In this document: positions 1 through 64,000 of the stretch, piece by piece
Layout: the number at the start of each line of letters is the position of its first letter
Numbering within the stretch: position 1 is the stretch's first letter
Source: Actinomycetales bacterium
Lineage (GTDB): Bacteria > Actinomycetota > Actinomycetes > Actinomycetales > Dermatophilaceae
DNA length: 64,000 nucleotides
NCBI GenBank assembly: GCA_016710385.1
Contig: JADJVX010000011.1
Span: forward strand, 136,054 to 200,053
Direction of reading: 5' to 3'
Program-made: the position numbers and the translations under genes
Notes under the pieces: generated by a model
What the model was told of the DNA's origin: nothing
Databases searched by the model: none
What the model saw: only the letters and a program-made list of their open reading frames with translations

Positions 1-189
1 GCCCGCGAGCAGCTCCGGCTTGCGGCCGACGCCGACCCGGCGACGTGGATCCGAGCCCGGGCCTGGGCCTTCGTCGGCCCAGGGCTGCTGACCCTCGCCG
101 ACTATCGCGGCAGTATGCCGGCCAGGACCGAACGGCTCACCCGGATGGTCGAAGCCGTCGCGTCCGACGTCGGGGTCAGGCTGCGCTGA
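1..189 (+). CDS. C-terminal end of an unidentified protein (partial; gene starts left of the window)
   Basis: Frame 1 is open from base 1 to TGA 187-189 (..AWAFVGPGLLTLADYRGSMPARTERLTRMVEAVASDVGVRLR*) with GC-rich third positions. No family recognised by eye. Confidence 0.3.
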   Translation, partial: AREQLRLAADADPATWIRARAWAFVGPGLLTLADYRGSMPARTERLTRMVEAVASDVGVRLR

Positions 190-205
190 GCACCCGACGG
201 ACGGC

Positions 206-1522
206 TCATGGCTTGACGATCGTCAGCCCCTTGGCGTTGGCTCCCAGCGCGAGGAGCGCCGTGACGGAGCGGTCATACAGGGCCTGGTATGCCGTGCGCC
301 GCGCTCCGGTCACGGCCTTGTCGGCCAGCAGGGTGGGCAGGTCCACCAGCCGGAGCCGTTCAGTGGTTTCGGCCATGGCGATCGGCCTGGCCTCGGCCGC
401 AGTCGCCCGGAAACGTCCGTCAGATCCCTCGGTGAAGGTGAAGGTAGCCAGGGACTCTGCCTGGGTGGCTTTCAGCTTGGGGATGGAGTGTTGCTTGTGC
501 ACGAAGTTGCCCATGCCGTAGGCAACCCAGACGTCACCGATCTTGTCGATCGGCTGGAGCACGTGGACGTGATGCCCGTAAATGAGGTCAACATCGCCGG
601 ATTCAGCCAATGCCTTCGCTGCGGAACGCTGTTGGGCGTTCGGGGCGGAGACGTATTCGTCGCCGCCATGGATCGCCACCGCGACGATCTGGGCACCGGC
701 GGCCCGTGCCGCCTTGGCGTCGGCGAGCATGGTGGGGATGTCGATGAGATTGACTGCCCACGGCTTGCCGGCGGGCATGGGCAGCCCGTTGAGGCCGTAG
801 CCGTAGGCCAACAACGCCACCTTGACCCCTCGCACATCCATCATCGCCGGGGTATTCCGTTCCTGCAGGCTCCGGTTGGAGCCGGCGTGCTTGAGCCCAT
901 TGGCGTCCAGGACGTCGAGGGTGTGCGACAGCCCGGCGAATCCCTTGTCGACCGTGTGATTAGAGGCGGTCGTGCACGCGTCGAACCCGGTGTCCTTGAG
1001 GGCGGGGACGACGTCCTGAGGCACCGAGAAGGTCGGGTATCCCGTGTAGGGGCCACCGGCCGGCGCCAAGGGTGTTTCGAGATTGCAGATCGCCACGTCA
1101 GCCTTGGCGATGGTGGACCTGACCTCGGCAAACATGGGTCGGAAGTTCAGCCCGTTCGAGGCACCTGCCGGCTGCGTCTTGGCGTCGGCCCGCGCCTGGT
1201 TGACGACACCCTCGTGCAGGAGGACGTCGCCCCCGACGGTGATGCTCACGGTGCGAGCGCCGGCCGGGCTGGTCTGGGTGGGGTTCGTCGGCGTGGGGTT
1301 CGTCGGCGCGGGGTTCGTCGGCGCGGGACTCGCCGCGGCCGCGCCTGTCTTCGACGCGACCGGCCCCGTGCTCACACCCCCCGTGCCGGTCAAGGGTGCC
1401 GACGGGGTGGCCACCGGACTCGATGTGCACGCCGCGACCGTGAGCAGCACGGCATACCCGATGGCGCCCACGCCGAGCCGGGCAGAGCGGGTGCGGCCAG
1501 ACGGCATGCCCAGATGTGACAT
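206..1522 (-). CDS. CapA-family (poly-gamma-glutamate synthesis-like) metallophosphoesterase, predicted lipoprotein
   Basis: ORF 206..1630(-). The internal ATG at 1522 gives a lipobox-like signal (MSHLGMPSGRTRSARLGVGAIGYAVLLTVAAC), then a Pro/Thr linker, then CapA/PGA_cap-like blocks (TVGGDVLLHEG, NLETPL, TTASNHTVDKG, VAIHGGDEY, IYGHHVHVLQP). Confidence 0.8.
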   Translation of the reverse strand: MSHLGMPSGRTRSARLGVGAIGYAVLLTVAACTSSPVATPSAPLTGTGGVSTGPVASKTGAAAASPAPTNPAPTNPTPTNPTQTSPAGARTVSITVGGDVLLHEGVVNQARADAKTQPAGASNGLNFRPMFAEVRSTIAKADVAICNLETPLAPAGGPYTGYPTFSVPQDVVPALKDTGFDACTTASNHTVDKGFAGLSHTLDVLDANGLKHAGSNRSLQERNTPAMMDVRGVKVALLAYGYGLNGLPMPAGKPWAVNLIDIPTMLADAKAARAAGAQIVAVAIHGGDEYVSAPNAQQRSAAKALAESGDVDLIYGHHVHVLQPIDKIGDVWVAYGMGNFVHKQHSIPKLKATQAESLATFTFTEGSDGRFRATAAEARPIAMAETTERLRLVDLPTLLADKAVTGARRTAYQALYDRSVTALLALGANAKGLTIVKP

Positions 1523-1578
1523 GCGCTCAAAGTTAGCGGGCCCCCTGTGCTGTCGGGGCGCTGGCCTAGGCTTCCCTC

Positions 1579-2244
1579 GTGACCCAACCGCCCGCCCCCA
1601 TCGCCACCGCGCGTGGGCTGTTCGTCGCATTCGAAGGCGGCGACGGCGCGGGCAAGTCCACCCAGGTGCGGCTACTCGTCGCGGCCCTGACTGCGGCCGG
1701 CCGCCGCGTGGTCGTCACCCGCCAACCGGGAGGCACCGAGCTGGGCAGTCAGATCCGCGAGCTGCTGCTGCACGGCGGCGAGGTCAGCCCCCGGGCGGAG
1801 GCGCTGCTGTTCGCCGCCGACAAGGCCCAGCACGTCGACCACCTCATCCGGCCGGCCCTCGAGCGTGGCGATGATGTGGTCACCGATCGTTACACCGACT
1901 CGTCGATCGCCTACCAGGGTGCCGGTCGCGACCTGGGCTCCGACGAAATCCACCGGCTGCTCGAGTGGGCCGTCGCCGGGCTGTTCCCCGAGCTCACCAT
2001 CGTCCTGGACGTGCCGGCCGAGGTCGGCCGACAGCGTCGCGGCAGCGTCCACGACCGGCTCGAACGCGAGCACGACGCCTTCCACGACCGGGTCCGACAG
2101 CACTTCCTCGACCTTGCCGCAGCTGCGCCCGAGCGCTACCTCGTGGTCGACGGCACCCAGCCGCCCGCCAGACTGCACGCCGAGATCGTCGCCCGGCTCC
2201 ACGGCATACCGGCTCTCGCGGGGCTGCGGGAGGCGACCTCGTGA
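1579..2244 (+). CDS. tmk: dTMP (thymidylate) kinase
   Basis: GTG start at 1579. P-loop FVAFEGGDGAGKSTQ, TRQPGGT, and DRYTDSSIAYQG family blocks. The stop overlaps the next start (GTGA at 2241-2244). Confidence 0.95.
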   Translation: MTQPPAPIATARGLFVAFEGGDGAGKSTQVRLLVAALTAAGRRVVVTRQPGGTELGSQIRELLLHGGEVSPRAEALLFAADKAQHVDHLIRPALERGDDVVTDRYTDSSIAYQGAGRDLGSDEIHRLLEWAVAGLFPELTIVLDVPAEVGRQRRGSVHDRLEREHDAFHDRVRQHFLDLAAAAPERYLVVDGTQPPARLHAEIVARLHGIPALAGLREATS

Positions 2245-3494: not shown

Positions 3495-5050
3495 ATGGCC
3501 ACCGCTGCAGCCGCGGCGCTGACCCTGTCCTCGTGTCTGGTGCTGCCGTTCATGAGCGCCGACCCCAGCAGCACCGGCCCGGGGGGGCAGCGGGGGAGCC
3601 GGCGGGGCCGGCTCGGCGGCCGCAGTCGCGACCCCGCCTCCGGACCACCCGGAGCTGGCCGACTACTACAGCCAGACCCTGCAGTGGCGACCGTGCTCGG
3701 GCGGGGAGTGCGCGACCCTCAAGGTGCCGGTCGACTACGCCAAGGCCGGCGGCGACAGGATCGAGCTCAAACTCCTGCGCGCGCTCGCCAAGACACCCAG
3801 CGCGCGGATCGGGTCGCTCGTCGTCAACCCCGGCGGACCGGGTGGATCGGGCGTCGACTACGCCCGGTATGCCGACCAGATCGTCGGTGCCGAGGTGCGC
3901 AAACGGTTCGACGTCGTCGGCTTCGATCCGCGGGGCGTCGGCCAGTCGGCGCCGCTGGACTGCATCTCCGATGCCGAGCTCGACACCTTCCTCGGGATGG
4001 ACCCCACCCCGGACGACAAGGCCGAGCAGGAGGCCTTCGTGGCGGGATCCCGCAAGCTGGCCGCCGGGTGCGCCGCCAACGGCGGGGCCCTGCTCGGTCA
4101 CCTCTCGACGGTCGAGGCCGCCCGCGACATGGACATCCTGCGGGCCGCGCTGCGTGAGCCGAAACTCCACTACCTCGGGAAGTCCTACGGCACCTTCCTC
4201 GGGGCCACCTATGCCGACCTTTTTCCCGCTCAACGTCGGGCGTTTCGTCCTCGATGGGGTGGTCCCGCCCGATCTCACGTCCGCGGAGGTGTCCGAAGGT
4301 CAGGCGCGAGGTTTCGAAATGGCGACAAAGGCCTATCTGCAGAGCTGCATTTCCAAGGGCAACTGCCCCGCAGGCAACTCCGTCGAGGAGGGTATGCAGT
4401 GGATCAAGGACTTCCTGCTCAAGCTCGACGCCAACCCGCTGCCGGTCTCTGGTGACGCACGCATCACCGAACTCACCGAGGCCTGGGGGTCGATCGGTCT
4501 GGCCTACGCGATGTATTCCAAGAGTTCGTGGGTTTCGCTGACTGCCGCCTTGCGTTCTGCCCAGCAGGGCGACGGCACCGACCTCATGGACCTAGCCGAC
4601 CAGTATGCCGACCGCACCACTTCGGGCTCGTACACCGGCAACATCATGGAGGTCATCTACGCGGTCAACTGTCTGGACCGGCCCGACACCGCGGACCTGG
4701 CCGTCGTCGAAGCCAACGCCGAGAAGTTCTCCGCCAGCGCCCCGCTCTGGGGCCGCATGCTCGCGTGGGGTTCGGTGCCCTGCGGGGTGTGGCCGGTCAA
4801 GGCCACCGGGGCGCCGAAGAAGGTGACCGCAGCGGGCAGCGGCCCGATCGTCGTCGTCGGCACCACGCGCGACCCGGCGACGATCTACGAGTGGTCGGTG
4901 CGGTTGCGCCAGGAGTTGGCCAACGCGGTGCTCATCAGCTTCGACGGCGACGGCCACACGGCATACACGCGGTCCAATTCCTGCGTCGACCGCCCGATCG
5001 ACGCCTACTACGTCAACGGCACGGTGCCGCAGGACGGCCTCACGTGCTGA
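3495..5050 (+). pseudogene. Secreted alpha/beta hydrolase (tripeptidyl-aminopeptidase-like lipoprotein), reading frame broken twice
   Basis: Signal/lipobox MATAAAAALTLSSC starts at ATG 3495 in frame 0. The conserved mature N-terminus (LQWRPCSGGECATLKVPVDYAKAGGDRIEL..GKSYGTFLGATYADLFP) is only in frame 1, which has a stop at 3553-3555 and no upstream start. The C-terminal two thirds (NVGRFVLDGVVPP..TAYTRSNSCVDRPIDAYYVNGTVPQDGLTC*) are in frame 2. Deleting one G from G7 (3581-3587) and one T from T5 (4220-4224) restores a single ORF. Confidence 0.75.
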
Positions 5051-5388: not shown

Positions 5389-5793
5389 TCACTCGGCTGG
5401 GTCGGTGTTCGGTTTCATCCAGAACGGCGAGTAGTGGTAGCCGTCGAGGTCGTCGAACTGGCGCTGATACATGAAGGGGTAATCGTCGGTGTCGCCGATC
5501 CGTCCGCCCGCGGCAGCCGCGCGCTCGAGAAGGTCGTCGACTGCCGCGCGGCTGGCGAGGTCGAACGAGACGGTGACCTTCGAGGGGGTGTCCGGTCCGC
5601 CGACCAGTTCCTCGACGCCGCCGACGCCGGCATACATCTCGCGGCTGCCGAGCATGACGTATTGGTCGGGTGCAATCGCAAAGCACGACACGTTGTGGCC
5701 GGACATCTCGGCGTTGAGGGTCCAGCCGAGGGCGGTGTAGAAGGCGGTAGCGCGCTCGACGTTCTCGACGGGACACGTGATGAACAGGCTCAT
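5389..5793 (-). CDS. VOC (glyoxalase/bleomycin-resistance/dioxygenase) family protein
   Basis: Internal ATG at 5793 of ORF 5389..5937(-): MSLFITCPVENVERATAFYTALGW..YGYHYSPFW. Size about 134 aa, typical of the family. Confidence 0.75.
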   Translation of the reverse strand: MSLFITCPVENVERATAFYTALGWTLNAEMSGHNVSCFAIAPDQYVMLGSREMYAGVGGVEELVGGPDTPSKVTVSFDLASRAAVDDLLERAAAAGGRIGDTDDYPFMYQRQFDDLDGYHYSPFWMKPNTDPAE

Positions 5794-5952: not shown

Positions 5953-6765
5953 ATGAGCGATGACATCGGCGCGGATGTCACCGAAGCCGCCCGCGACATC
6001 GGAGGTCACCCCATCGTCGAGAACGGCGCTCGAGTGGGGTATGCCGTCAACGGCATCGTCCATCTGCTGATCGCGTGGATCGCGATCCAGCTCGCGCTCC
6101 AGCCGAGCGCACCCCGCAAAGGCAATGGCCAGGAGGCGGTCGACCAGTCCGGCGCACTGGCCACCCTCGCCTCCAGTGGGCTGGGCAAGGTCACTCTGCT
6201 CGTCGCGGTCGGTGGATTCACCCTGCTCGCGCTCTGGCAGTTCACCGAGGCGATCGTCCGGCGCAAGACGAGCGTCCGGCTGAAGGCAGCGGCCAAAGGC
6301 ATCGTCTACCTGAGCCTGGCCTGGAGCGCGTTCGCGTTCGTCCGCGGGGCCGGTTCCTCGAGCACGGAGCAGACCGTCGACGTCACCGCACAGCTGATGA
6401 ACCGTCCGCTGGGTCAGATCTTCGTCGCGGTCGTGGGCGCGGCCGTGCTGGGCATCGGCGCCTACCACGTGCACAAGGGCGCGAAGAGCCGCTTCCTTCG
6501 CGACCTGCGCGAGCACCCGGGGCGTTGGGCCGAGTATGCCGGCCGCTACGGCTACATCGCCAAGGGCATCGCGCTCATCCTCGTCGCCGTGGTGTTCTTC
6601 GTCGCCGCCTGGCGCGGCCGCGCCGACGAGGCCACCGGTCTGGACGGCGGACTGCGGATTCTGCTCGACCTGCCCTTCGGTCACCTTCCGCTCGTGCTCA
6701 TCGCCCTCGGCTTCGCCGCGTATGCCGTGTACTCCGCCGCCCGCTCGAAATACGCCCGCGTGTAG
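5953..6765 (+). CDS. DUF1206 domain membrane protein
   Basis: ATG 5953 is preceded by AGGAGG (5943-5948). There are three repeated pairs of hydrophobic helices (..GYAVNGIVHLLIAWIAIQLA.., ..KGIVYLSLAWSAFAF.., ..GYIAKGIALILVAVVFFVAAW..). The upstream part of track ORF 5218..6765 spans the tRNA and is not coding. Confidence 0.8.
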   Translation: MSDDIGADVTEAARDIGGHPIVENGARVGYAVNGIVHLLIAWIAIQLALQPSAPRKGNGQEAVDQSGALATLASSGLGKVTLLVAVGGFTLLALWQFTEAIVRRKTSVRLKAAAKGIVYLSLAWSAFAFVRGAGSSSTEQTVDVTAQLMNRPLGQIFVAVVGAAVLGIGAYHVHKGAKSRFLRDLREHPGRWAEYAGRYGYIAKGIALILVAVVFFVAAWRGRADEATGLDGGLRILLDLPFGHLPLVLIALGFAAYAVYSAARSKYARV

Positions 6766-7537: not shown

Positions 7538-8238
7538 CACTGCTCCTTGAGCTTGTTGGGACCCCAGTCGCGGTACCCGGCATACGAGGCGAGCGCGAGG
7601 CCGACCCCGAAGATGATTCCGGCAGTGACGTCTGAGGGATAGTGGACCCCGAGAAACACCCGGTCGAGGGCGGTGACGACCATGACGACCCCGGCCCCGA
7701 CGACCGCGGCGATGCGGCCCCTCCGGCCGAGCAGCGGCCAGCAGAGCACCACGAGGATCGTCGAGGCGGCCGCTGCATTGGCCGCATGCCCCGAGGGGAA
7801 GCTGTAGCCCGGTGCGTGGGTGATGGCGTCCTCGACCACCGGTCGGGCCCGCTGGACGAGGTATTTCACGTCGAGGGCGAGGTTCCAGCTGGCCATCATG
7901 GTGAGGAAGGCCCACAGCGCCCGAATCGGCAGGCGATGCTGTCGCCATACCCACACGCAGACGAGGGTGCCGGCGATGTAGACCCATATGGGTTGCAGCA
8001 TCTGCTCCCACACCAACAGCGCCTGGGTCAGCCCGGGGCGCTCCCGGGTGATATCGGTGGCAGCACGGATCATGCTTTCGTCGAAGTGGAGGATCGGCTC
8101 CCAGCGCGAGCGCACGAGATAGGCCAGGGCGGCTACCGGGACGGCGGTCGTGACGGCATACCCTGCGGCTTTGAGCAGCCGGTGCAGCACCCGACGGCGG
8201 AGCCGACCGCGGACCCACGGCCGCTCTGGCTCAGCCAA
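7537..8238 (-). CDS. PAP2-family phosphatase (membrane), second paralogue
   Basis: Signature KYLVQRARP .. [12 protein letters not shown] .. [15 protein letters not shown]. The start is uncertain: TTG 8238 overlaps the upstream stop, and GTG 8190 is an alternative. The upstream part of ORF 7537..8508 overlaps the lipid kinase gene. Confidence 0.7.
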
Positions 8239-9133: not shown

Positions 9134-9292
9134 GCCCGGACGGTACCCCGTCGGCGGGTGTGTGAGCCCACCTGAGACCGGGCGCGGCGGCATCGAGTGG
9201 TCTGGCCGCACGGCATACCGGCCTGCCGCGGAGCAGCCGCGGGGGACCTAAGCCCATAGCGCGTGAGGTGAGGGGGTTCTTAGCCTGAGGAA

Positions 9293-19442: not shown

Positions 19443-19447
19443 CGGGT

Positions 19448-51943: not shown

Positions 51944-52086
51944 GATGTGAGCCCAGCCAGGCGCGGCGGGAGCGCCCGTGAACGCAGCCTGGGGTCCTGG
52001 GCACAGCCAGCCGAACGGCATACCGGCTGGTGCGTGCAAAGATGGCCCCCGGCCCCTGCCCATAGCACCGAGGATCGACCCCTTCC

Positions 52087-55426: not shown

Positions 55427-55430
55427 GCGC

Positions 55431-56507
55431 TCAGACGTAGCGCTCGAGGATGCTCGTCTCGGCCATCCGCGACAGGCCCTCGCGCACGGCACGGGCCCGG
55501 CTCTCGCCGACCCCCTCGACGGCCATGAGGTCTTCGATGTTGGCGGCCAGCAGCCGCTGCAGCGACTCGAAGTGATCGACCAGCCGATCGATGATGGCTC
55601 GTGGCAGCCGGGGGATCTTGGTGAGCAGCCGGTAGCCGCGCGGGGAGACCGACGAGTCGAGGCTGTCGGTGGCACTGGCGAAACCCACCGCACGGGCACT
55701 GGCGGCGAGGTCGAGCAACTCGGTGGAGGTCAGCGCGACGAGGTCGTCCATTGCGGCGCTCACCGTCTTGCCGGACTTGCTGGCCAGCAGGTAGTCGCCG
55801 ATGACCAGTTCGCGATCGTTGCCCAGGCCCCCGACGAGTTCGGCCAGTTGCAGGCTAAGCAGGCGTCCGTCGGTGCCGAGCTCGACGGCATACCCGTGGA
55901 TCTCGTCACTGATCCGCCGCACCATCTCCAGGCGTTGGAGCACTGCGGCGACGTCACGCACGGTGACGAGGTCTTCGATTTCTAGGGCGGAGAGCGTCGC
56001 GCTCACCTCGTCGAGGCGGGCCTTGTAGCGCTCGAGGGTCTGCAATGCCTGGTTGGCCCGCGAGAGGATCGCGGCGGAGTTCTCGACGACGTGGCGGCGT
56101 CCGCCGACGTAGAGCGCGATGGTCTGCATCGACTTGCTCACCGAGATGACCGGGGCCCCAGTCTGCAGGTGCACCCGCTCGGCAGTGCGGTGGCGCGTGC
56201 CTGATTCGGAGGTGTCGATCCGGGCATCGGGGACCAACTGAGTGTTGGCCCGCACGATGCGTGTGATGTCCTTGTCGACGACGATCGCGCCGTCCATCTT
56301 GGACAGCTCGCGCAGCCGGGTCGCCGAGAACTCGATGTCGATCTTGAAACCGCCCGAGCACAACGCCTCGACCGACTTGTCGTTGCCGAGAACGATGAGA
56401 GCGCCGGTGCCGCCACGCAAGATCCGCTCCAGTCCGTCGCGCAGCTCGGTGCCCGGGGCGACGGCGCCGAGGATCGCGATGAGCTGTTCGTCGTCGGCGC
56501 GTTCCAC
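55431..56507 (-). CDS. disA: DNA integrity scanning protein DisA (diadenylate cyclase)
   Basis: DAC domain GALIVLG, DGAIVV and RHRTAERV blocks, and a C-terminal HhH (EDLMAVEGVGESRARAVREGL). Confidence 0.95.
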   Translation of the reverse strand: MERADDEQLIAILGAVAPGTELRDGLERILRGGTGALIVLGNDKSVEALCSGGFKIDIEFSATRLRELSKMDGAIVVDKDITRIVRANTQLVPDARIDTSESGTRHRTAERVHLQTGAPVISVSKSMQTIALYVGGRRHVVENSAAILSRANQALQTLERYKARLDEVSATLSALEIEDLVTVRDVAAVLQRLEMVRRISDEIHGYAVELGTDGRLLSLQLAELVGGLGNDRELVIGDYLLASKSGKTVSAAMDDLVALTSTELLDLAASARAVGFASATDSLDSSVSPRGYRLLTKIPRLPRAIIDRLVDHFESLQRLLAANIEDLMAVEGVGESRARAVREGLSRMAETSILERYV

Positions 56508-56555
56508 GGTGGCGAGTCTAATGCGGCTGGTTGCCCGCCCTTTGGTCGTCTTCGC

Positions 56556-57986
56556 TCACAGTTCGGACACGTCGCGATCGGGGCCCGCTTGCAGGGCGAC
56601 GGCGACCGCCTGGGCGAGGTGGGACACCTCGACCATGGCCAGACCGGGAACGGGCGTGGCCGACCCGAGGGTGCCGGGCGGGACGAGGGCGCGCCGGAAG
56701 CCCAGCCGGGCGGCCTCGGCGAGCCGGCGCGGCATACCGGTGACCGGACGGATCTCACCGGCCAGCCCGACTTCACCGATGGCGATCGAGTCGCAGGGGA
56801 AGGCGCGGTCGAGGGCGGCCGAGGCCAGCGCCAGGGCGATCGCGAGGTCGGCAGCCGGCTCGGTGACCTTGGCGCCGCCGACGGTCGCGGTATAGGTGTC
56901 GGCCGCAGCGACCGGGATCCGCGCCCGCCGATCGAGCACCGCCACGGACATCGCTACCCGAGCCGAGTCGAGCCCGCTCGTGGCTCGACGCGGCGAGGGC
57001 GTGGTGCACCGTGCGACGAGCGCCTGGACCTCGGCCACCAAGGGGCGTCGACCCTCGAGCGTGATCGTCACGCAGGTGCCCGGCACCGTGACATCACGGG
57101 TCGAGAGAAACAGCCCGCTGGGGTCAGGCAGCCCGACGATGCCCACATCGGACAGGTCGAAACAGCCGACCTCGTCGGTGGGTCCGTAACGGTTCTTGAC
57201 CGCTCGGACCAGGCGCAGCCTGGAGTGCCGCTCACCCTCGAAGGCGACGACGACGTCGACGAGGTGCTCCAAGACGCGGGGGCCGGCAATCGACCCGTCC
57301 TTGGTGACGTGACCGACGAGCAGGACGCAGATGTCGTGGGTCTTGGCCACCGCGATCAGGGCGGCGGCCACCTCACGGACCTGTGCGACATTGCCGGCCG
57401 AACCGCCGATCTCGGCGCTGGCGATCGTCTGCACCGAGTCGACGACGACCAATTGGGGCGCAAGCATCTCGATCTGGCCCAGGATGGTGCCGAGGTCGGT
57501 CTCGGCGGCCAGGTGCAGGTGCGCTGCCATCGCCTCGATGCGCTCGGCCCGCATCCGCACCTGGGCGGCGGACTCTTCGCCGCTGACGTAGAGGACCCGG
57601 CGTCCGCTGCGCGCTGCCCGCGCCGCGACGTCGAGCAACAGCGTCGACTTCCCGATGCCGGGTTCGCCCGCCACGAGCACCACGGCACCCGGGACAAGGC
57701 CGCCGCCGAGCACTCGGTCGAACTCGCCCACGCCGGTGGGGGCCGCTTCCGCCCGGGTCAGGTCGACCTCACCGATGCGCGGGACCGCTCGGGTGGGCGT
57801 CACCGCCATCGTCATGCGCCCTCGGCCGGCGCCCACCTCGCCGACGGTGCCCCACGCCTGACACTCCCCGCAGCGGCCGACCCATTTCAGCGCAGTCCAG
57901 CCGCACTCGCTGCAGCGATAGGTCGGCCCCTTGGCCGCCCCCCGCGCGGGTGCCTTGCGCCCCTGCATGCCCGGGTAAGCCGTCAC
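56556..57986 (-). CDS. radA: DNA repair protein RadA
   Basis: Zinc finger YRCSECGWTALKWVGRCGEC, Walker A GEPGIGKST, KNRYG motif, and a Lon-like C-terminus. The alternative start is ATG 57968. Confidence 0.93.
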   Translation of the reverse strand: MTAYPGMQGRKAPARGAAKGPTYRCSECGWTALKWVGRCGECQAWGTVGEVGAGRGRMTMAVTPTRAVPRIGEVDLTRAEAAPTGVGEFDRVLGGGLVPGAVVLVAGEPGIGKSTLLLDVAARAARSGRRVLYVSGEESAAQVRMRAERIEAMAAHLHLAAETDLGTILGQIEMLAPQLVVVDSVQTIASAEIGGSAGNVAQVREVAAALIAVAKTHDICVLLVGHVTKDGSIAGPRVLEHLVDVVVAFEGERHSRLRLVRAVKNRYGPTDEVGCFDLSDVGIVGLPDPSGLFLSTRDVTVPGTCVTITLEGRRPLVAEVQALVARCTTPSPRRATSGLDSARVAMSVAVLDRRARIPVAAADTYTATVGGAKVTEPAADLAIALALASAALDRAFPCDSIAIGEVGLAGEIRPVTGMPRRLAEAARLGFRRALVPPGTLGSATPVPGLAMVEVSHLAQAVAVALQAGPDRDVSEL

Positions 57987-58122
57987 CGTCGCCCTCGCAT
58001 CCTCATGGCCGCGACCCTAGACGCGGCCACCGACACCCCGTCATCCAAGAGCTCGGCACCCTCGGCATGACCTAGAGACAGCCGTGCGCGGCGCCGCGAC
58101 GGCATACCGGGGTGGCAGTGCT

Positions 58123-58920
58123 TCAGTAACGCCGCCAGCGCAGCGTGACGGCGTAGTCCACGGATGTCCGGGTCGGTTCGCGGGTGAAGATCCGCTGACA
58201 CATCGACGGCGGGAACTCCCAGCTCAGGACCGCCTCGAAATCCGCCCGCGAGTCGAACTCCCAACTCACGTCGAGGGATTCGCGCGCCCACCCCTGCCGC
58301 GTCCAAAACCGCTCCACCGCTGCGGCGTCGTAGTCGGGCCAGGCCGCGCTGAACCACGACCCGAACGTCGACCGGGTCGCGTCGTTGTCGACGACGAAGG
58401 CGCTCCCGCCGGGCCGCACGATCCGGCCCAGCTCCGCCAAACCCGGCTCACACCCCGGCCCGAAGAAGTAGGCCCACCGGGCGATCGCCGCGTCGACGCT
58501 CGCGGGGAACAGGCCGGTGGCCTGAGCCCCAGCCACGACGACGGTGACCGGCGCTCCCAGGCCGTCGGGACCGGACGGCATACCGTCGACGCGCTGCTGC
58601 GCGAGGGCTGCCAGCGGCCGGTGCGGCTCCACGCCGATCACCGTGCGCGCGGTCTCGGCCAGCCGCGGCAGGTGGAACCCTGTGCCGCAACCGAGTTCGA
58701 CCACGGTCGCGCCCCGCCAATCCGGTCGCCCGGAGATGCGCAGCAGCGCCCGGTCGATGACCCCCGCCCGATCGAGCGCGAGATTGTGGGTTTCGTAGGT
58801 CTGCGGGGACCCCCAGATATTGGGGCTGCGCACCGCTCCCGCGGGGTCAGAGGCGTCGTCAGGGGTGTCGGAGACCTCAGGATTGTCGGAGACCTCAGGG
58901 TTGTCGAATCCCGCACTCAC
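58123..58920 (-). CDS. Class I SAM-dependent methyltransferase
   Basis: GTG 58920 overlaps the upstream stop (GTGA). SAM motif I VVELGCGTGFH. The N-terminus contains an 18-bp tandem duplication (DNPEVS x2). Confidence 0.75.
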   Translation of the reverse strand: MSAGFDNPEVSDNPEVSDTPDDASDPAGAVRSPNIWGSPQTYETHNLALDRAGVIDRALLRISGRPDWRGATVVELGCGTGFHLPRLAETARTVIGVEPHRPLAALAQQRVDGMPSGPDGLGAPVTVVVAGAQATGLFPASVDAAIARWAYFFGPGCEPGLAELGRIVRPGGSAFVVDNDATRSTFGSWFSAAWPDYDAAAVERFWTRQGWARESLDVSWEFDSRADFEAVLSWEFPPSMCQRIFTREPTRTSVDYAVTLRWRRY

Positions 58921-59993
58921 AGGCGGCGTTTGCTGCGCGGGGTCGCCTCGGCCGCCAAGGTCGCGGGGTGCACGAGCAGCGGCAGCATCGCGCGTCCGCT
59001 GCCGCGGTGGGCGGCCTTCACCGACCGCAGGTATGCCGTGCACCTCACCACCAGCTCGTCATAGGCCGCCTCGCCCATGAGTTCGACCAACTCGCTTCGG
59101 CAGGAACGGAACACTGGCTCGCGGCCGATGTGGGCTTCGCTGTTGCCCGAGCAATACCAGGCGAGGTCATGGCCGCCCGGACCCCAGGCCCGCCGGTCGT
59201 ACTCCGTGATCGTCGTCTCGAGATAGGTGGACCCGTCGTGCTCTTCGACGGTGCGATAGGTGCGCCGGATCGGCAACTGCCAGCACACCTCCGGCTTGGC
59301 CTGATGGGTGGGAATGCCTTGGCGGATGGCGTACTGGTGCAGCGCGCAGCCTGCCCCGCCCTCGAAACCGGGCCGGTTGAGGAAGATGCACGCCCCTTTG
59401 ACGACGCGGGTCTTGCGCACGCCGTCCTCGAGCTCGGTCCAGTCGCTGCGCCGCAGTCGGGTCGTCGGCGCGGCCGAGATCCCGGTGGACGATTCCGCCA
59501 CATCGTCGGCCTCCTCGACGGCAGACACATCGCCGGCGGCCTCCGCGACAACACCGGCAGCGGTAGACCGGGCTGGCAGGTCATAGGCCTCGCTCAGCCC
59601 GCCGAGAACGACGTGATGGATGGGGGGTTCGGCTGCCGGTGCGTGCATCGTGGGTGAGGCTGGTGGCGCCGGTTCGACAGGTGGCGCCGGCTCGACAGGT
59701 GGCGCAGGGTGGGCTCGTTCGTGGGCCAGGGCGTGGAACTGCCAGTCCTGCGGCCTGAGCTTCTCGGCGACGTCGCGGATCGTGCGGTAATCCGCCTTCT
59801 CCGTGAAATGCGCTCCCAGAGAGCAGCAGCCGTCATTCGGCCGGCCGGGAAGGATGCCCTTGCAGCCGTTGCCGAAGACGCACGTCCACCGCGAGGTGAG
59901 CCAGGTGAGGTCACAGCGGAACCGTTGCTCAGGGTTGCCGGGGTCGGTGAACTCGACCCAGACGCGCGCCAGGTCCAGGGGTGATTCGGGCAC
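58917..59993 (-). CDS. Conserved Cys-rich hypothetical protein
   Basis: GTG 59993. Cys clusters (CVFGNGCKG..GCCSLGAHF; GACIFLN..GCALH; CWQLP) are interrupted by a low-complexity PAPPVEPAPPVEPAPP insert. Confidence 0.65.
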   Translation of the reverse strand: MPESPLDLARVWVEFTDPGNPEQRFRCDLTWLTSRWTCVFGNGCKGILPGRPNDGCCSLGAHFTEKADYRTIRDVAEKLRPQDWQFHALAHERAHPAPPVEPAPPVEPAPPASPTMHAPAAEPPIHHVVLGGLSEAYDLPARSTAAGVVAEAAGDVSAVEEADDVAESSTGISAAPTTRLRRSDWTELEDGVRKTRVVKGACIFLNRPGFEGGAGCALHQYAIRQGIPTHQAKPEVCWQLPIRRTYRTVEEHDGSTYLETTITEYDRRAWGPGGHDLAWYCSGNSEAHIGREPVFRSCRSELVELMGEAAYDELVVRCTAYLRSVKAAHRGSGRAMLPLLVHPATLAAEATPRSKRRL

Positions 59994-60053: not shown

Positions 60054-60881
60054 GTGCAGTCCATGGGGACACCAGCCGACCGACCGGTGGCACCCGCCCG
60101 CGCTCGGGTCGGCCTGTCGACGGCTTCGGTCTATCCGGCGACCTGTGCGACGGCCTTCGATCTCGCGGCCCGGCTCGGCTATGACGGCATCGAGGTCATG
60201 GTGTGGACCGACCCGGTCTCCCAGGACGCCGGTGCGCTCGCGGCGCTGTCCGAGCACTACGGCATACCCGTGCTGTCCGTGCACGCTCCGACGCTGCTGC
60301 TCACCCAGCGGGTCTGGGGCCCCGACCCGTGGACGAAGATCGACCGGTCGGTCGACCTCGCACGCGACCTCGGGGCGGACACCGTGGTGCTGCACCCACC
60401 CTTCCGGTGGCAGCGCGAGTATGCCGTGGAGTTCGAGGACGGGGTAGCCACCCGCGAGGACCACAGCGGGATTCGGCTGGCCGTCGAAAACATGTTCCCC
60501 TGGCGAGCCCGGGGGCGGGAGATGCAGGCCTATCTGCCGCACTGGGACCCCGTGCCGATGGCTTATGACAACGTCACGCTGGATCTCTCGCATACGGCCA
60601 CGGCGGGGTCGGACGCCCTGGCGATGGTCGAAGCGTTGGGCGCTCGGCTGCGGCACATCCACCTGGCCGACGGCTCGGGCGGGGTGCGCGACGAGCACCT
60701 CGTGCCGGGCCGTGGCGGACAGCCGTGTGATGCCGTGCTGAGCCGTCTGGCGGCTGCCGATTTCGACGGTCACATCGTCGTAGAGATCGGCACTCGCAAG
60801 CTGACCGACGACGACCGGGAGCGCGATCTGCGCGCCTCACTGGACTTCGCTCGCACCCACCTGGCCCGTCGCGGCGAGTGA
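60054..60881 (+). CDS. Sugar phosphate isomerase/epimerase (xylose-isomerase-like TIM barrel)
   Basis: Family-like blocks GYDGIEV, VLSVHAP, VVLHPP, LAVENM and HIHLADG. The alternative start is ATG 60063. Confidence 0.75.
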   Translation: MQSMGTPADRPVAPARARVGLSTASVYPATCATAFDLAARLGYDGIEVMVWTDPVSQDAGALAALSEHYGIPVLSVHAPTLLLTQRVWGPDPWTKIDRSVDLARDLGADTVVLHPPFRWQREYAVEFEDGVATREDHSGIRLAVENMFPWRARGREMQAYLPHWDPVPMAYDNVTLDLSHTATAGSDALAMVEALGARLRHIHLADGSGGVRDEHLVPGRGGQPCDAVLSRLAAADFDGHIVVEIGTRKLTDDDRERDLRASLDFARTHLARRGE

Positions 60882-60935: not shown

Positions 60936-61883
60936 GTGGACCCTCGCGACCTTCTGCGCACCTCCTTGCTCGGCCTGTCCCGGGCCAACGCCGTCCGTGA
61001 CGTCATCGAACGCGCCCCCGTCAGCCGCGCGGTCGTCAAGCGCTTTGTGCCCGGGACGACCTCCGACGACGCGCTCCGGGCGACCGGTGCGTTGCAGGCC
61101 GTCGGGCGGATGGTGACCATCGATTACCTCGGCGAAGACACCACCACTCGCGAGCAGGCCGACGCGACCCGGGACGCCTATCTCGGCCTCCTCGCCGCGC
61201 TCGCCGAGCGTCACTACTCACTCGCCGGCAAGGCCGAGGTCTCGCTCAAGCTCACCGCCCTCGGTCTGCTGCTGCCCGACGGCCACCGGATCGCCCTCGA
61301 TCACGCCCGCGCGATCAGCCAGGCCGCCACCAATGCCGGCACGACGGTCACGGTCGACATGGAGGATCACACGACCACCGACGCGACGCTCGCGGCCGTC
61401 CAGGAGTTGCGCGAGGACTTCCCGACGACCGGGGCGGTGTTGCAGGCCTATCTGCGGCGCACCGAGGGCGACTGCCGCGATCTCGCGTATGCCGGGTCGC
61501 GGGTTCGCTTGTGCAAGGGCGCCTACGCCGAGCCCGAGTCGGTCGCCTTCCAGGACGGAGACGAGGTCGACCGCTCCTACGTGCGCTGCCTCAAGGTGCT
61601 CATGAAGGGCGAGGGCTATCCCATGGTGGCCAGCCACGACCCACGGATCATCGAGATCGCCGCCGCACTGGCCGGCCGTGAGCGGCGCGAGCCGCGATCC
61701 TTCGAATACCAGATGCTCTACGGCATCCGACCCGACGAGCAGCAACGCATCGCCGACCGCGGCGACCAGATGCGGGTCTACATCCCCTATGGCACGGAGT
61801 GGTACGGCTATTTGATGCGACGGCTGGCCGAGCGACCCGCTAACGTCACCTTCTTCCTGCGCGGCCTGGCGACGAAGGGTTGA
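60936..61883 (+). CDS. Proline dehydrogenase
   Basis: TIDYLGE, SLKLTALG, VDMEDH, RLCKGAY, SHD, and the YGYLMRRLAERPAN C-terminus. Confidence 0.88.
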   Translation: MDPRDLLRTSLLGLSRANAVRDVIERAPVSRAVVKRFVPGTTSDDALRATGALQAVGRMVTIDYLGEDTTTREQADATRDAYLGLLAALAERHYSLAGKAEVSLKLTALGLLLPDGHRIALDHARAISQAATNAGTTVTVDMEDHTTTDATLAAVQELREDFPTTGAVLQAYLRRTEGDCRDLAYAGSRVRLCKGAYAEPESVAFQDGDEVDRSYVRCLKVLMKGEGYPMVASHDPRIIEIAAALAGRERREPRSFEYQMLYGIRPDEQQRIADRGDQMRVYIPYGTEWYGYLMRRLAERPANVTFFLRGLATKG

Positions 61884-61891: not shown

Positions 61892-62698
61892 ATGAGCACC
61901 ACTGCGATTTTCGGCGCAGGCGTCATGGGCGAGACCCTGCTGTCTGGGTTGCTGCGCTCGGGCCGACCGACCGAGCAGATCGTCATCACCGAGAAGCGGC
62001 CCGAGCACGCGGCGTTGCTGCGCGACAAGTACGGCGTCCGGGTGCTCGACAACGTCGCGGCCGCCGCGCTCGCCGACACCCTCGTCCTGGTCGTCAAGCC
62101 GCAGGATATGGATGGGCTGCTCGCCGAGATCCGCGACCACATCGTGCCCGGCAATCTTGTGGTGTCGATGGCTGCGGGCATTCCCACCGCCTGGCTGGAG
62201 CAGCGGCTGCCGGCCCGGTCCTCAGTGGTGCGGGTCATGCCCAACACCCCAGCCCTGGTCGATCAGGGCATGGCGGCCATCTCGGCCGGCAGCAATTGCA
62301 CAGCCGAGCACCTCGCCGAAGCGGAGGCGCTGCTCGCCTCGTGCGGCAAGGTGGTCCAGGTCCCCGAGAAGCACCAAGACGCCGTCACGGCGATCTCCGG
62401 GAGCGGACCGGCATACATCTTCTACGTCGTCGAGGCGATGATCGAAGCGGGAGTGCTCCTCGGGATGCCACGCGCGACCTCGACCGAGCTCGTCGTGCAG
62501 ACCCTCTACGGCGCCGCGACCATGCTGCGCGAGACCGGCGAGCACCCCACCGTGCTGCGGGAGCGGGTCTCCTCCCCGGGTGGCACGACCATCGCGGCGA
62601 TCCGCCAACTCGACGACAACAAGGTGCGGGCCGCCTTCATGACGGCAATGGAAGCCGCCGCAGCCCGCTCCAAGGAGTTGGCCGACGGCCTTGGCTGA
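61892..62698 (+). CDS. proC: Pyrroline-5-carboxylate reductase
   Basis: ATG 61892 (TTG 61880 also possible). IFGAGVMGETL NADP fold, RVMPNTPALV, and SPGGTTIAA. Confidence 0.92.
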   Translation: MSTTAIFGAGVMGETLLSGLLRSGRPTEQIVITEKRPEHAALLRDKYGVRVLDNVAAAALADTLVLVVKPQDMDGLLAEIRDHIVPGNLVVSMAAGIPTAWLEQRLPARSSVVRVMPNTPALVDQGMAAISAGSNCTAEHLAEAEALLASCGKVVQVPEKHQDAVTAISGSGPAYIFYVVEAMIEAGVLLGMPRATSTELVVQTLYGAATMLRETGEHPTVLRERVSSPGGTTIAAIRQLDDNKVRAAFMTAMEAAAARSKELADGLG

Positions 62699-63227
62699 CT
62701 CCACGTCTGGCGGATTGCGGGAGTTGGTGCGGATCTCCGAGGACGACTGGGAAAGCCAGCGCGACATTCGCACAGCGGCCCTGGCCGACGCTCCCGACAT
62801 GTTTGGCTCGACCCTCGCCGATGCCCTCACCTTCGACGAGGCGGACTGGCGGTACGGCATCCGGTCCACCACGTGCTGGCAACTGCGTGCGGCCGGTATG
62901 CCGGTCGGCATGGTCCGACTCTCGGTGCGGGATGCCGGTGGAGCCTGGGCGCAGGTGCTGCCGGCGGCACCGGGCCGGACGGCATACCTCATCTCGATGT
63001 ACGTGGCACCGCAGGTGCGGGGGACGGGTGCGGGGGAGCAACTCGTGGCGGTGGCGGCCGCGGAGGCCAAGAGACTCGGTTACCGCCAGCTGTGGCTGGA
63101 TGTCGCCACGCACAACACCGCTGCTGCCCGGTTGTACGAACGGGTCGGCTTCCGCTGGGCCGAGCCACCGCCGGACCAGGCGCCGGACGACCGGCATTGT
63201 GAACTCTCCATGGTGCTCGACCTGTGA
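62691..63227 (+). CDS. GNAT family N-acetyltransferase
   Basis: Acetyl-CoA motif A VAPQVRGTGAGEQL and the NTAAARLYERVGF block. The start is uncertain: TTG 62691 overlaps the proC end. Confidence 0.7.
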   Translation: MADSTSGGLRELVRISEDDWESQRDIRTAALADAPDMFGSTLADALTFDEADWRYGIRSTTCWQLRAAGMPVGMVRLSVRDAGGAWAQVLPAAPGRTAYLISMYVAPQVRGTGAGEQLVAVAAAEAKRLGYRQLWLDVATHNTAAARLYERVGFRWAEPPPDQAPDDRHCELSMVLDL

Positions 63228-63312
63228 CCGGTCGTGGCCGCCGGATGACGTCGACCTGAGTTCGGTCGGGGTTGACTGGCCCCACCGGCACGCGGCATGG
63301 CAGGGTGTCGCC

Positions 63313-63873
63313 ATGAGCGAGATCACCGTGACGACCGTGACCCCCCAGGACTGGGCAGCCTTCAAGGCTGTGCGCCTGGACGCCCTGCGGGACTCGCCAG
63401 CAGCCTTCTCCGCGACCTTGGCCGAAGAAGCGGCGTTCAGCGACCAGGAGTGGATCGCTCGCGTCGAGCGGGCCCCTCGGTTCATTGCGCACCGCGACGG
63501 TGCCGTCGTCGGCACCGCGAGCCTCGGGGTCCACGAGGCCGACGACTCGACCGACGACCGGCTCGCCGAAGGGTTCAACTCCGGACTGAGTGAGATCTTC
63601 GGCCTCTGGGTGACGCCACTGGCTCGGGGGACGGGCGTGGCCACCGCGCTGGCCCGCGCTGGCGCCAAGCGGGCCCAGCAGGACGGTCACTCGCACGTCG
63701 TCTACTGGGTGAGCACCGACAACGGGCGTGCGGTGGCCTTCGCCTCGGGTCTGGGCTTCCGGCCCACCGATTCGCGCCGACCGATGCGCGGCTCCAACCG
63801 CGATGGCGAGGAGGAGATCGCGATGATCCTTCCCCTCGGTGCCGATCGCGGCACACTCCCTGACTTGGGCTGA
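63313..63873 (+). CDS. GNAT family N-acetyltransferase
   Basis: ATG 63313 inside track ORF 62296..63873. WVTPLARGTGVATAL motif A and NGRAVAFASGLGF. Confidence 0.75.
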   Translation: MSEITVTTVTPQDWAAFKAVRLDALRDSPAAFSATLAEEAAFSDQEWIARVERAPRFIAHRDGAVVGTASLGVHEADDSTDDRLAEGFNSGLSEIFGLWVTPLARGTGVATALARAGAKRAQQDGHSHVVYWVSTDNGRAVAFASGLGFRPTDSRRPMRGSNRDGEEEIAMILPLGADRGTLPDLG

Positions 63874-63925
63874 GCTGCGACGGCATACTGGCTCCAGGGG
63901 CTCTCGGGAAAGGTAACGTCGGAGC

Positions 63926-64000
63926 ATGCGCAGCCAGGCGCGGGTGATTTGGGACCCGGAATTCACGAAGTACAACTTCGGCCCGCATCACCCGATGTCT
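63926..64000 (+). CDS. Histone deacetylase/acetoin-utilisation (AcuC-like) family protein, N-terminal fragment (runs off the right edge)
   Basis: ATG 63926. MRSQARVIWDPEFTKYNFGPHHPMS matches the usual start of the family (Y.FG..HPM). Confidence 0.55.
   Translation, partial: MRSQARVIWDPEFTKYNFGPHHPMS

Follow-up and report, generated by a model that had tools for sequence, protein, structure and literature searches.

The window considered here is a stretch of 64 kb (64,000 nucleotides) from an Actinomycetales bacterium of the family Dermatophilaceae (contig JADJVX010000011.1, positions 136,054 to 200,053), and it is densely populated by one eight-base DNA word, GTATGCCG. By exact census, the word occurs 43 times in the forward orientation and 43 times as its reverse complement CGGCATAC, for a total of 86 copies, or about one per 750 bases. 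These are the numbers that a first, sequence-only reading of this DNA had obtained by eye, and all the example coordinates that it listed are correct. The word is the mark of a strong, orientation-blind force that bears on the DNA itself, with a specificity of 8 bases (about 12 with the flanks), which has long acted on the resident chromosome, continues to act and has shifted in specificity in sub-lineages. The reading that we tentatively favour, and that may well be right, is that of a self-recognition word comparable to the DNA uptake sequence (DUS) of Neisseriaceae and the uptake signal sequence (USS) of Pasteurellaceae, which would be recognised in the DNA of kin and spread by biased recombination.

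Excess, sharpness and coding contexts of the word

Whichever null model is taken, the word is in large excess. An order-0 base-composition model predicts 2.3 copies for the window, in line with the rough expectation of 2-3 made earlier for independent bases, an order-3 Markov model predicts 5.0, and 100 dinucleotide-preserving shuffles contain 1.16 +/- 1.12 copies with a maximum of 6, against 86 observed. Synonymous codons were also shuffled within genes, leaving all the proteins and the codon usage of each gene unchanged; 500 such shuffles hold 6.45 +/- 2.4 coding copies, with a maximum of 13, and the observed coding count is 64. This null errs on the high side, as the word makes the rare codons that it uses more frequent. 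The census against Markov and codon-preserving nulls that the sequence-only reading had proposed, run here on the window, thus bears out the excess. The word ranks second by frequency among all 8-mers of the window and, once a giant repeat gene (described below) is excluded, the top over-represented 7- to 10-mers are all sub-strings or super-strings of its motif, so that no second over-represented word is found at k = 7-10 in the window outside that gene.

The word is also sharply bounded. The hexamer GTATGC continues with CG in 86 of its 97 occurrences in the window, and the 24 one-mismatch variants of the word sum to 48 copies against about 55 expected, which is the background level. When the 86 copies are aligned on the word, the flanks carry information at -3 (C, 55/86), -1 (G, 55/86), +8 (T, 53/86) and +9 (G, 51/86), and none elsewhere. 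Among the forward copies, G precedes in 24 of 43 and T comes next in 24 of 43, exactly as had been counted by eye, and the 10-mer GTATGCCGTG/CACGGCATAC, estimated at about 36 copies, is present 18+18 = 36 times. The extended form preferred in this species is C-N-G-GTATGCCG-T-G; the flank preferences are stronger among the intergenic copies (our own count from the flank alignment), and therefore they are part of the motif and not a codon effect.

As the flanks hold no conserved sequence beyond this extended form, the copies are independent words. The sequence-only reading had named the contrary finding, copies belonging to a longer dispersed repeat or to a processing artefact, as one that would undo it, and the data contradict both: the probability that the words are pieces of a dispersed repeat or of a miniature inverted-repeat transposable element (MITE), or stem from contamination or from sequence processing, is negligible. 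It is true that the Illumina P7 adapter CAAGCAGAAGACGGCATACGAGAT contains the word, that the literature matches to the word string itself are all adapter or primer strings, and that one copy is replaced by a run of N in three short-read scaffolds. However, the flanks are neither adapter-like nor repeat-like, with no conservation beyond +/-3 bases; the copies stand in frame in Pfam-verified housekeeping genes, where the differences from relatives are synonymous or tolerated; they are reproduced identically in independent conspecific assemblies; and orthologous sites are conserved across isolates and metagenome-assembled genomes (MAGs) from many projects and technologies. Repetitive extragenic palindromes (REP) or MITEs would lie mostly between genes, whereas about 80% of the copies are inside genes, in six frame and strand contexts. 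Rfam and tRNA scans of the window returned one tRNA-Thr only, and no RNA family accounts for the word.

The constraint acts on the DNA and not on a peptide, as had been proposed, because the word is used in six frame and strand combinations, is present in spacers and forces rare codons. In a corrected gene model of the window (92.5% coding), 69 copies are within genes and 17 of the 86 within spacers, i.e., in the 7.5% of non-coding DNA. The genic copies are read mostly in sense phase 2 (x-Tyr-Ala-x, 33 copies) and antisense phase 1 (x-Ala-Tyr, 17), then in sense phase 1 (Gly-Met-Pro, 8), in antisense phase 2 (Gly-Ile-Pro through ATA, 8), and as Val-Cys-Arg (2) or Arg-His-Thr (1). The contexts first noticed by eye (V-C-R in holB, R-Y-A-V and G-M-P in tilS, T-A-Y-H in ftsH, G-I-P in tmk and clpC) all hold on Pfam-verified genes. 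The rare codons in question are TAT, GCA and ATA: 34 of the 67 Tyr-Ala dipeptides of the window are written TATGCC, and 8 of its 10 ATA codons fall inside the word, so that the rare ATA noted earlier in G-I-P is indeed imposed by it.

This constraint is close to saturation wherever proteins allow it. The word is present at 65 of the 84 peptide contexts (77%) that permit it by synonymous choice alone, to a similar degree for sense and antisense contexts. Strand use tracks the available peptide opportunities, and the comparison of word orientation with gene strand, another of the checks proposed, shows no transcription polarity in the window. The proteome is itself displaced. Word-compatible peptides amount to 5.2 per 1000 codons in the window and in L001, its closest relative, 3.9 in word-bearing genomes, 2.6 in members of the clade without this word and 1.95 in outgroups, in mostly the same syntenic genes; at orthologous sites, word-free relatives often have other residues, e.g., RLEV or RFEV where RYAV is found here. 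The most conserved genes are word-poor, with 0.47 copies per kb in ftsH and 0.39 in clpC against about 1.4 per kb overall.

The two orientations are equally used, 43:43 in the window and 84:75 in the syntenic region of ten relatives (127:118 combined), and their order along the window is random (50 runs against 44 +/- 4.6 expected in a runs test). The sequence-only reading had taken the equal strand counts as an argument against Chi or the FtsK-orienting polar sequences (KOPS), and the ten genomes uphold it. Chi (read by RecBCD or AdnAB) and KOPS or architecture-imparting sequences (AIMS, read by FtsK) are, like the word, over-represented octamers of the core genome; they are read by DNA-processing machines, and the word shares with such polar signals its presence in core genes and its rarity in an acquired island (see below). 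Nevertheless, they are strongly co-oriented with replication, whereas no strand bias is seen in these 64 kb of one replichore or in the ten relatives; moreover, inverted pairs of words would be self-defeating for a polar signal, and the word, found about once per 0.7 kb, is roughly six times as dense as Chi in Escherichia coli. A polar recombination or segregation word is contradicted by the orientation data, and we hold it to be very improbable.

Words are about three times as dense in spacers (about 3.5 per kb) as in genes (about 1.2-1.4 per kb). The occasional inverted pairs noticed by eye include three intergenic ones that form hairpins with stems of 11-16 bp. The first (29942-29971, 11-bp stem) is between the gene of an AAA_21 ATPase and lysS, and the second (48127-48162, 16-bp stem, -34 kcal/mol, z -4.6) is downstream of the giant gene and upstream of clpC. 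The third (53295-53322, 12-bp stem, z -3.5) is not simply a terminator, because it lies in a divergent intergenic region. No T-tract is found at any of the three.

Conservation, dialects and acquired DNA

The distribution of the word was surveyed in FtsH-anchored loci from 80 species, with about 22 kb per related genome. On the FtsH tree, the word is confined to one clade, made of Dermatophilaceae/Intrasporangiaceae-like genomes together with Metallococcus and Ornithinimicrobium/Serinicoccus, where its density is 2.3-14.5 copies per 10 kb. It is near zero in the outgroups (Streptomyces, Cellulomonas, Kineosporia, Micrococcaceae, Microbacteriaceae and others), with at most 3 copies in about 22 kb, and the hexamer GTATGC alone is nearly missing from their loci. 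Within the clade, two single-base dialects are found, GTATGCG in the sister group L002, L003 and L015 and also in L007, and GGATGCCG in L008 (25 copies against 2.1 expected), and no word was found in the sampled loci of L004, L013 and L017. The census in relatives that had been suggested thus establishes that the word is lineage-specific, with dialects and some losses. On this tree, which is that of a single protein with about 22 kb per genome, GTATGCCG is placed as the ancestral form and GTATGCG and GGATGCCG as derived ones.

The copies are kept in place. In L001 (74% DNA identity), 16 of 29 aligned word sites (55%) are conserved at the same position, and the reverse comparison gives 16 of 28. 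In the GTATGCG genomes, the dialect stands at the same place and in the same orientation in 10 of 45 aligned sites of window words, against 0 of 38 in the word-free members. The sites have persisted while the recognised sequence changed, which argues for a trans-acting reader co-evolving with the word. Flank preferences also vary by lineage, C-GTATGCCG-C being preferred in L016 and L018 and G-GTATGCCG-T-G in the window and L001, and this suggests finer sub-dialects. Some other loci have over-represented 8-mers of their own, namely GGACATCC and CGGCATCC in L041 (a Homoserinimonas MAG), AGTCAGTA in L039 (12 copies), ACCTAGCA in L019 (9 copies) and ATCCCCAA in L034; some of these are probably local tandem repeats.

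The patchy way in which the word and its dialects come and go within one family resembles the specificity turnover of restriction-modification (R-M) systems, and the word could be a hyper-iterated target of an orphan or defence-associated methyltransferase (Type IIG, Type III or BREX-like), accumulating through linked biased repair or through selection for methylated sites. The highly iterated palindrome HIP1 of cyanobacteria, another 8-mer, reaches similar densities in association with methyltransferases (PMC4390886). Moreover, GGTATGCC is a near-palindrome (GGYATRCC), corresponding to GGCATGCC with one C-to-T change. The word is, however, non-palindromic, its invariant final G breaking the near-symmetry (all 55 GGTATGCC of the window have G next), and the perfect palindromes are not enriched, CGGCATGCCG and GGTATACC having 0 copies each in the window. 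Contiguous, non-degenerate and non-palindromic 8-base methyltransferase sites are unusual, the targets of R-M systems are usually avoided and not accumulated, and no methyltransferase-nuclease pair lies within the 64-kb window. We regard this methylation-linked explanation as distinctly unlikely. An origin of the word as a deaminated palindrome (GGCATGCC giving GGTATGCC) was rejected, as the final G is invariant and the parent and double-product palindromes are both absent from the window.

At the scale of the species, we compared the window with 23 metagenome contigs of 98-99.8% identity, recovered by exact-protein look-up. Over 57.9 kb, there are 536 sites of single-nucleotide polymorphism (SNP), and the 688 word positions contain none of them, where 6.3 would be expected once codon position is allowed for (P ~0.002). 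No word is gained or lost among these contigs over the same length, and 9 further copies are found in the 7.9 kb that they add beyond the window.

One acquired stretch of DNA is poor in the word. A strain-specific island of 3.9 kb (L201 6008-9887, also in L202, L204 and L215) is inserted between hpt and ftsH, at window position 17178/17224, and the window strain is without it. It holds 1 word where about 6 are predicted from the flanks (1.54 per kb; P ~0.02, on one island only). Its GC content (66.5%) and GC3 (about 0.75) are lower than those of the flanks, and its five genes, ABC-transporter-like, comprise three without a Pfam match, one ABC ATPase and one coding for a 370-aa protein. The contrast between core and acquired DNA that the sequence-only reading had proposed to examine is thus seen for one island, and a broader comparison of core and accessory density, by tblastx depth across the loci of the clade, was confounded by differing locus ranges and was not used. 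In the lytic phage TJE1, which infects Tetrasphaera jenkinsii, 2 copies were counted in 49 kb, a low number that also speaks for the uptake-like reading. Viral contigs scanned for inverted word pairs gave chance two-copy matches and no word-dense contig among the matches listed. The sole long word-free stretch of the window (39.3-48.1 kb) is the giant Ig-repeat gene, with its near-identical tandem units; we rejected it as evidence on foreign DNA, for the tandem arrays, which leave an effective unique length of about 3 kb, mostly explain it, and it is therefore not counted as independent evidence.

What may read the word

In the uptake-like reading that we favour, a trans-acting protein of this clade would recognise the double-stranded word in either orientation, most likely during the binding or uptake of DNA released by kin. 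Word-bearing fragments would be taken up or otherwise favoured and then recombined into the chromosome, and mutations that create or preserve the word would be fixed preferentially, through a molecular drive that selection may reinforce. The word would in this way saturate the positions that proteins tolerate, displacing preferred codons and shifting amino-acid usage, and it would accumulate in spacers, often as inverted pairs doubling as hairpins, while staying rare in newly acquired DNA. A change in the specificity of the recognition protein would lead to a genome rewritten in a new dialect (GTATGCG or GGATGCCG), and the loss of the system would let the words decay.

KOPS and REP-type repeats are classes of hyper-frequent oligomers that come in addition to those given in the literature for bacteria. 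The latter are Chi, uptake sequences and HIP (PMC4390886). Among the classes considered, only uptake sequences appear to be at once non-palindromic, unpolarised, located inside genes and dialectal. The resemblance to DUS and USS that had been pointed out from the sequence is strengthened by the dialects, the conservation of orthologous sites, the hairpin pairs, the doubled peptides, the depletion of the island and the 0 SNPs in words, the function itself being a predicted one.

Point after point, the DUS of Neisseriaceae (core GCCGTCTGAA, 12-mer ATGCCGTCTGAA) is like the word. It is an exact word in great abundance, present about once per 0.4-1 kb and equally on both strands, with a sharp motif (allowing one mismatch adds only 21% to kingDUS); genes carry it in various frames, and spacers are enriched in it, with inverted pairs forming hairpins; it is family-specific, with single-base dialects that follow phylogeny and are kept at the same positions (PMC3630211). 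DUS are also rare in recently acquired DNA (PMC3630211), as the word is in the one island counted. The extended form described here even has the heptamer ATGCCGT in common with the 12-mer DUS, by coincidence; the two are not homologous, because the essential DUS core CTG is absent here. DUS differ in belonging to another phylum and envelope type (the present organism is Gram-positive, with a high G+C content) and in their 10-12 bases against a core of 8 here. Their receptor ComP is a type IV minor pilin, whereas the present word is known from sequence alone.

The USS of Pasteurellaceae (core AAGTGCGGT) has thousands of copies, no strand bias and a location mostly in open reading frames (ORFs); the peptides that it encodes are enriched about two-fold, uptake sequences roughly doubling the encoded tripeptides, and it prefers poorly conserved genes and positions and is absent from genes without homologues in relatives (PMC2817400). 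All this is like the word, and the scarcity in the one island counted and the low density in ftsH and clpC match these observations of Findlay and Redfield (PMC2817400). Unlike the word, with its short flanks (C-N-G ... T-G), USS have AT-rich flanking segments and a graded specificity, and their frames correlate with preferred codons, whereas the word forces rare ones. HIP1 (GCGATCGC) is similarly an 8-mer found about once per kb through coding DNA, clade-wide, with exceptional lineages that are without it or have variants, and with a debated function (PMC4390886); it was recently proposed as an uptake or transformation signal (bioRxiv 10.64898/2026.06.24.733823). It is, however, a perfect palindrome of nested methyltransferase sites, whereas the word is no palindrome, and its palindromic counterparts show no enrichment. 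Within the same order, there is a precedent for natural transformation in Micrococcus luteus (Micrococcales), through Tad/Flp pili and ComEA/ComEC (PMC4322843).

Several points weigh against the uptake-like reading. The protein that recognises the word, the step of uptake and the drive are elements that we infer, and all the signatures described are also expected from any strong, sequence-specific and orientation-blind process acting for long on resident chromosomal DNA, for instance if a binding site on the chromosome were directly selected, or if repair or conversion were biased at specific sites. Genes for competence or pili are absent from the 64-kb window. Known uptake sequences have 9-12 bases and are those of Gram-negative bacteria with type IV pili, so that a Gram-positive with a core of 8 bases would have to use another receptor. 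The depletion in acquired DNA was measured on a single island, and the relatives were sampled at about 22 kb per genome, in one replichore region. The low count in phage TJE1 is to be read with the fact that the word density of its host was not censused. Finally, the spacing of the words is slightly more even than random (in two segments, the coefficient of variation is 0.79 and 0.68 where random placement gives about 0.96, with P ~0.04 for each), a result that we count as weak.

This last feature would fit a purely intracellular role, in which the word is the site of an abundant sequence-specific DNA-binding protein and is maintained by direct selection at a regular density, without uptake, for nucleoid organisation, chromosome maintenance or the marking of self DNA for repair or defence. 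A sharp motif of 8 bases (about 12 with flanks) is typical of a single protein-DNA interface; words that are SNP-free within the species and conserved across genera, and dialects that imply a co-evolving reader, agree with such a role, and low density in the acquired island and in the lytic phage fits a mark of self and non-self. Yet the word is missing in L004, L013 and L017, so that the function would be dispensable, and the 77% saturation of permissive sites exceeds any spacing requirement. The parS, matS, Noc-binding (NBS) and SlmA-binding (SBS) systems have tens of sites, and we know of no nucleoid or partition protein whose exact sites recur every 600-750 bases, coding sequence included, even where this entails other amino acids. 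On balance, we find this role unlikely.

A translocase could also be the reader, i.e., an FtsK- or TraB-like protein that recognises 8-base motifs on double-stranded DNA and moves chromosomal DNA from cell to cell or from compartment to compartment, as in actinomycete conjugation, instead of taking up free DNA. The length of the word matches the gamma-domain motifs of the FtsK family (KOPS, the SpoIIIE recognition sequences SRS and the TraB recognition sequences TRS), a signal for loading only need not be polar and fits the 43:43 count, and kin-biased exchange would give the same molecular drive, dialects and island depletion; the tests made here do not separate this model from uptake. Against it, TRS/clt sites form clusters on plasmids and are few on the chromosome, where they are not dispersed in thousands, and no such translocase lies within the 64-kb window. 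We consider it quite improbable.

The word could finally belong to a hitherto undescribed genome-wide self-marking system, an eight-base "address" read by a co-evolving protein that would be neither a pilin receptor of the DUS/USS type nor a methyltransferase. Candidate readers would be a translocase, or a factor of repair or defence, that tells the resident chromosome from foreign DNA, and the corresponding pressure would be one that saturates 77% of the permissive coding sites and rewrites the genome when specificity changes. We see this as doubtful, with an appreciable chance of being correct. Of the three functions that the sequence-only reading had put forward, namely uptake signal, dense protein-binding site and methylation site, it is the first that we tentatively favour, the choice being one for experiments and whole genomes. 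In the literature searched, we found no described function for the word in Actinobacteria, as that reading had stated, nor any description of it or of an uptake-like sequence in that group, which is not proof of novelty. The kind of phenomenon is known; what is new is the sequence, the phylum and presumably the reader.

To our knowledge, self-recognition words of the uptake kind are established only in Neisseriaceae and Pasteurellaceae, HIP1 of cyanobacteria being a debated third case. If the uptake-like reading is right, the present word would be a fourth such system, in a high-G+C Gram-positive and unrelated in sequence, and the phenomenon would be convergent and more general. This reading predicts a natural, kin-biased exchange of DNA in Dermatophilaceae, a family that includes dominant phosphate-removing bacteria of wastewater plants (Tetrasphaera and relatives of "Ca. 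Phosphoribacter"). As the clade has three dialects together with members that have lost the word, it lends itself well to a comparative search for the reader protein, and both this protein and the predicted transformation are directly testable. In practice, the word may serve as a strong taxonomic and binning signature, as a marker of recently acquired DNA and as a candidate tool for transforming organisms that are hard to manipulate, and it is a possible trap in adapter trimming, being contained in Illumina P7.

Positions of the copies and neighbouring features

All 86 positions come from the exact census and their gene contexts from the corrected gene model; each copy is given here with its strand, its sense or antisense reading followed by the phase, and the encoded peptide. 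A partial ORF contains 113-120 (+, sense 1, SMPA), and a PGA_cap gene contains 287-294 (+, antisense 1, TAYQ) and 1450-1457 (-, sense 2, GYAV). In tmk, 2202-2209 (-, antisense 2, HGIP) uses an ATA codon. In holB, 2421-2428 (+, sense 0, VCRE) is followed by the inverted pair 2774-2781 (-, antisense 2, DGIP) and 2798-2805 (+, sense 2, VYAA). The gene of a TAP-like hydrolase has 3867-3874 (+, sense 1, GMPT), 4603-4610 (+, sense 2, QYAD) and 4959-4966 (-, antisense 1, TAYT), and a Ble-like gene has 5628-5635 (-, sense 2, MYAG). Then come three copies in a DUF1206 gene, 6039-6046 (+, sense 2, GYAV), 6534-6541 (+, sense 2, EYAG) and 6720-6727 (+, sense 2, AYAV), and two in a PAP2 gene, 7578-7585 (-, sense 2, SYAG) and 8154-8161 (-, sense 2, GYAV). 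The DAGK/YegS gene carries 8633-8640 (+, antisense 1, PAYL), conserved in L001, and 9211-9218 (-) is intergenic. The DUF4921 gene has 10150-10157 (+, sense 2, EYAV), conserved in L001, and 10201-10208 (+, sense 2, EYAV). The copy at 10925-10932 (-) is intergenic or at the 5' end of the NlpC/P60 gene, which also has 11290-11297 (+, sense 2, RYAA), conserved in L001. In the S13 peptidase gene, 13197-13204 (+, sense 1, GMPL) and 14068-14075 (-, antisense 2, RGIP), both conserved in L001, surround 13636-13643 (+, sense 2, SYAE).

The tilS gene has 15618-15625 (+, sense 2, RYAV), where L007 has GTATGCGG, 16064-16071 (+, sense 1, GMPS) and 16139-16146 (-, antisense 1, TAYG), conserved in L001 and in the GTATGCG dialect in L003. 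The hpt-ftsH spacer holds 17278-17285 (-), intergenic and conserved in L001. In ftsH, 18625-18632 (-, antisense 1, TAYH) is common to L001, L016 and L018 and in the GTATGCG dialect in L002, and 19446-19453 (+), at the ftsH-folE junction, is conserved in L001. The folP copy 20497-20504 (+, sense 0, VCRE) is common to 6 relatives, with GTATGCGA in L002 and L003. In folB-folK are 21045-21052 (-, antisense 1, TAYP), 21490-21497 (-, antisense 2, PGIP) and 21564-21571 (-, antisense 1, PAYL), the last in the GTATGCG dialect in L002 and L003. A DUF3180 gene has 22254-22261 (+, sense 2, WYAA), a hypothetical gene 22632-22639 (-, sense 2, WYAG), and 23065-23072 (+) is intergenic.

A lone gene similar to NuoD (Complex1_49kDa-like; 23232-24374, -) adjoins a cytochrome P450 gene (24423-25691, +). 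It holds four copies, 23429-23436 (-, sense 2, WYAV), 23555-23562 (-, sense 2, RYAV, which is RLEV or RFEV in word-free relatives), 23636-23643 (-, sense 2, AYAG) and 23815-23822 (+, antisense 0, RHTC), conserved in L001; 24369-24376 (-), at the start of the gene and its spacer, is also conserved in L001. A 624-aa plus-strand ORF overlaps this real minus-strand gene, and longest-ORF models mislead here. The P450 gene has 25021-25028 (-, antisense 1, AAYV), in the GTATGCG dialect in L002, and 25235-25242 (+, sense 2, RYAG). Further on are 26357-26364 (-, antisense 2, CGIP) in a Rossmann/DUF2520 gene, 28123-28130 (+, sense 2, TYAV) in nadB, conserved in L001, and, in nadC, 28319-28326 (-, antisense 1, TAYV) and 28836-28843 (+, sense 2, AYAV), the latter conserved in L001. 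The arms of the first intergenic hairpin are 29945-29952 (-) and 29961-29968 (+), and lysS has 31081-31088 (+, sense 2, RYAV).

Two groups of DNA-maintenance genes typical of actinobacteria are found in the window, one at 32030-36799 (lsr2, a LigD primase-polymerase, an ATP-dependent ligase, Ku and Nei/Fpg) and the other at 54506-57986 (a MutY-like glycosylase, disA and radA), and all of these genes have word copies except Ku and lsr2. In the first, 32430-32437 (+) is intergenic, downstream of lsr2, and 32781-32788 (-, sense 2, VYAV) is in the LigD PrimPol gene. In three conspecific scaffolds (L205, L210 and L212), ACGTGGCACGACGGCATA (32763-32788) is replaced by a 10-N run exactly at this last copy, which, in its extended context GACGGCATAC, is identical to the P7 adapter over 10 bases; the adapter identity of the word may have caused reads to be trimmed or the assembly to break there, and seven apparent SNPs in that copy are the N-run and not variants. 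The ligase gene has 33407-33414 (+, antisense 1, PAYQ) and 33775-33782 (-, sense 2, RYAV), a DUF1877 gene 34666-34673 (+, antisense 1, TAYD) and 34848-34855 (+, antisense 2, HGIL), and nei/fpg 36123-36130 (-, antisense 1, TAYA), 36165-36172 (-, antisense 1, TAYP) and 36705-36712 (+, sense 1, GMPC). In the second group, 54737-54744 (+, antisense 1, PAYQ) and 55348-55355 (-, sense 2, WYAV) are in the mutY-like gene, 55886-55893 (-, sense 2, GYAV) in disA and 56730-56737 (-, sense 1, GMPR) in radA.

Between the giant gene and the second group, the arms of the second hairpin, 48133-48140 (+) and 48149-48156 (-), and 48238-48245 (+), upstream of clpC, are intergenic. In clpC, 49794-49801 (-, antisense 2, TGIP) uses an ATA codon, a DUF2599 gene has 51460-51467 (-, sense 2, GYAA), 52016-52023 (-) is intergenic and a GNAT gene has 52479-52486 (+, sense 2, VYAE). 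The arms of the third, also intergenic, hairpin are 53298-53305 (+) and 53312-53319 (-), and the Usp gene has 53851-53858 (+, sense 2, AYAV). The last copies are 58100-58107 (-), intergenic; 58576-58583 (-, sense 1, GMPS) in a methyltransf_11 gene; 59031-59038 (+, antisense 1, TAYL) in a hypothetical gene of 358 aa; 60260-60267 (-, antisense 2, YGIP) and 60419-60426 (+, sense 2, EYAV) in an AP_endonuc_2 gene; 61487-61494 (+, sense 2, AYAG) in a Pro_dh gene; 62409-62416 (-, antisense 1, PAYI) in proC; 62896-62903 (+, sense 1, GMPV) and 62980-62987 (-, antisense 1, TAYL) in a GNAT gene; and 63881-63888 (-), intergenic.

The giant gene itself (37009-48048, 11 kb) codes for a surface protein of more than 3600 aa, in two ORFs, with Big_13, Big_6 and DUF11 Ig-like repeats, and its sole word copy is 39336-39343 (+, SYAV). 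Its repeats are 16 near-identical tandem units of 267 bp (99% identity), after which come 8 units of 315 bp, its GC skew is strongly positive (+0.23 to +0.28), and the short-read assemblies of conspecific strains collapse 40840-46946. Two G12-13 homopolymer runs at 45122-45148 (GTGGGGGGGGGGGGGCGGGGGGGGGGGGCG) interrupt the gene and split it into the two ORFs, and the next unit looks frameshifted; these runs are a homopolymer error of long-read sequencing or else a tract prone to slippage.

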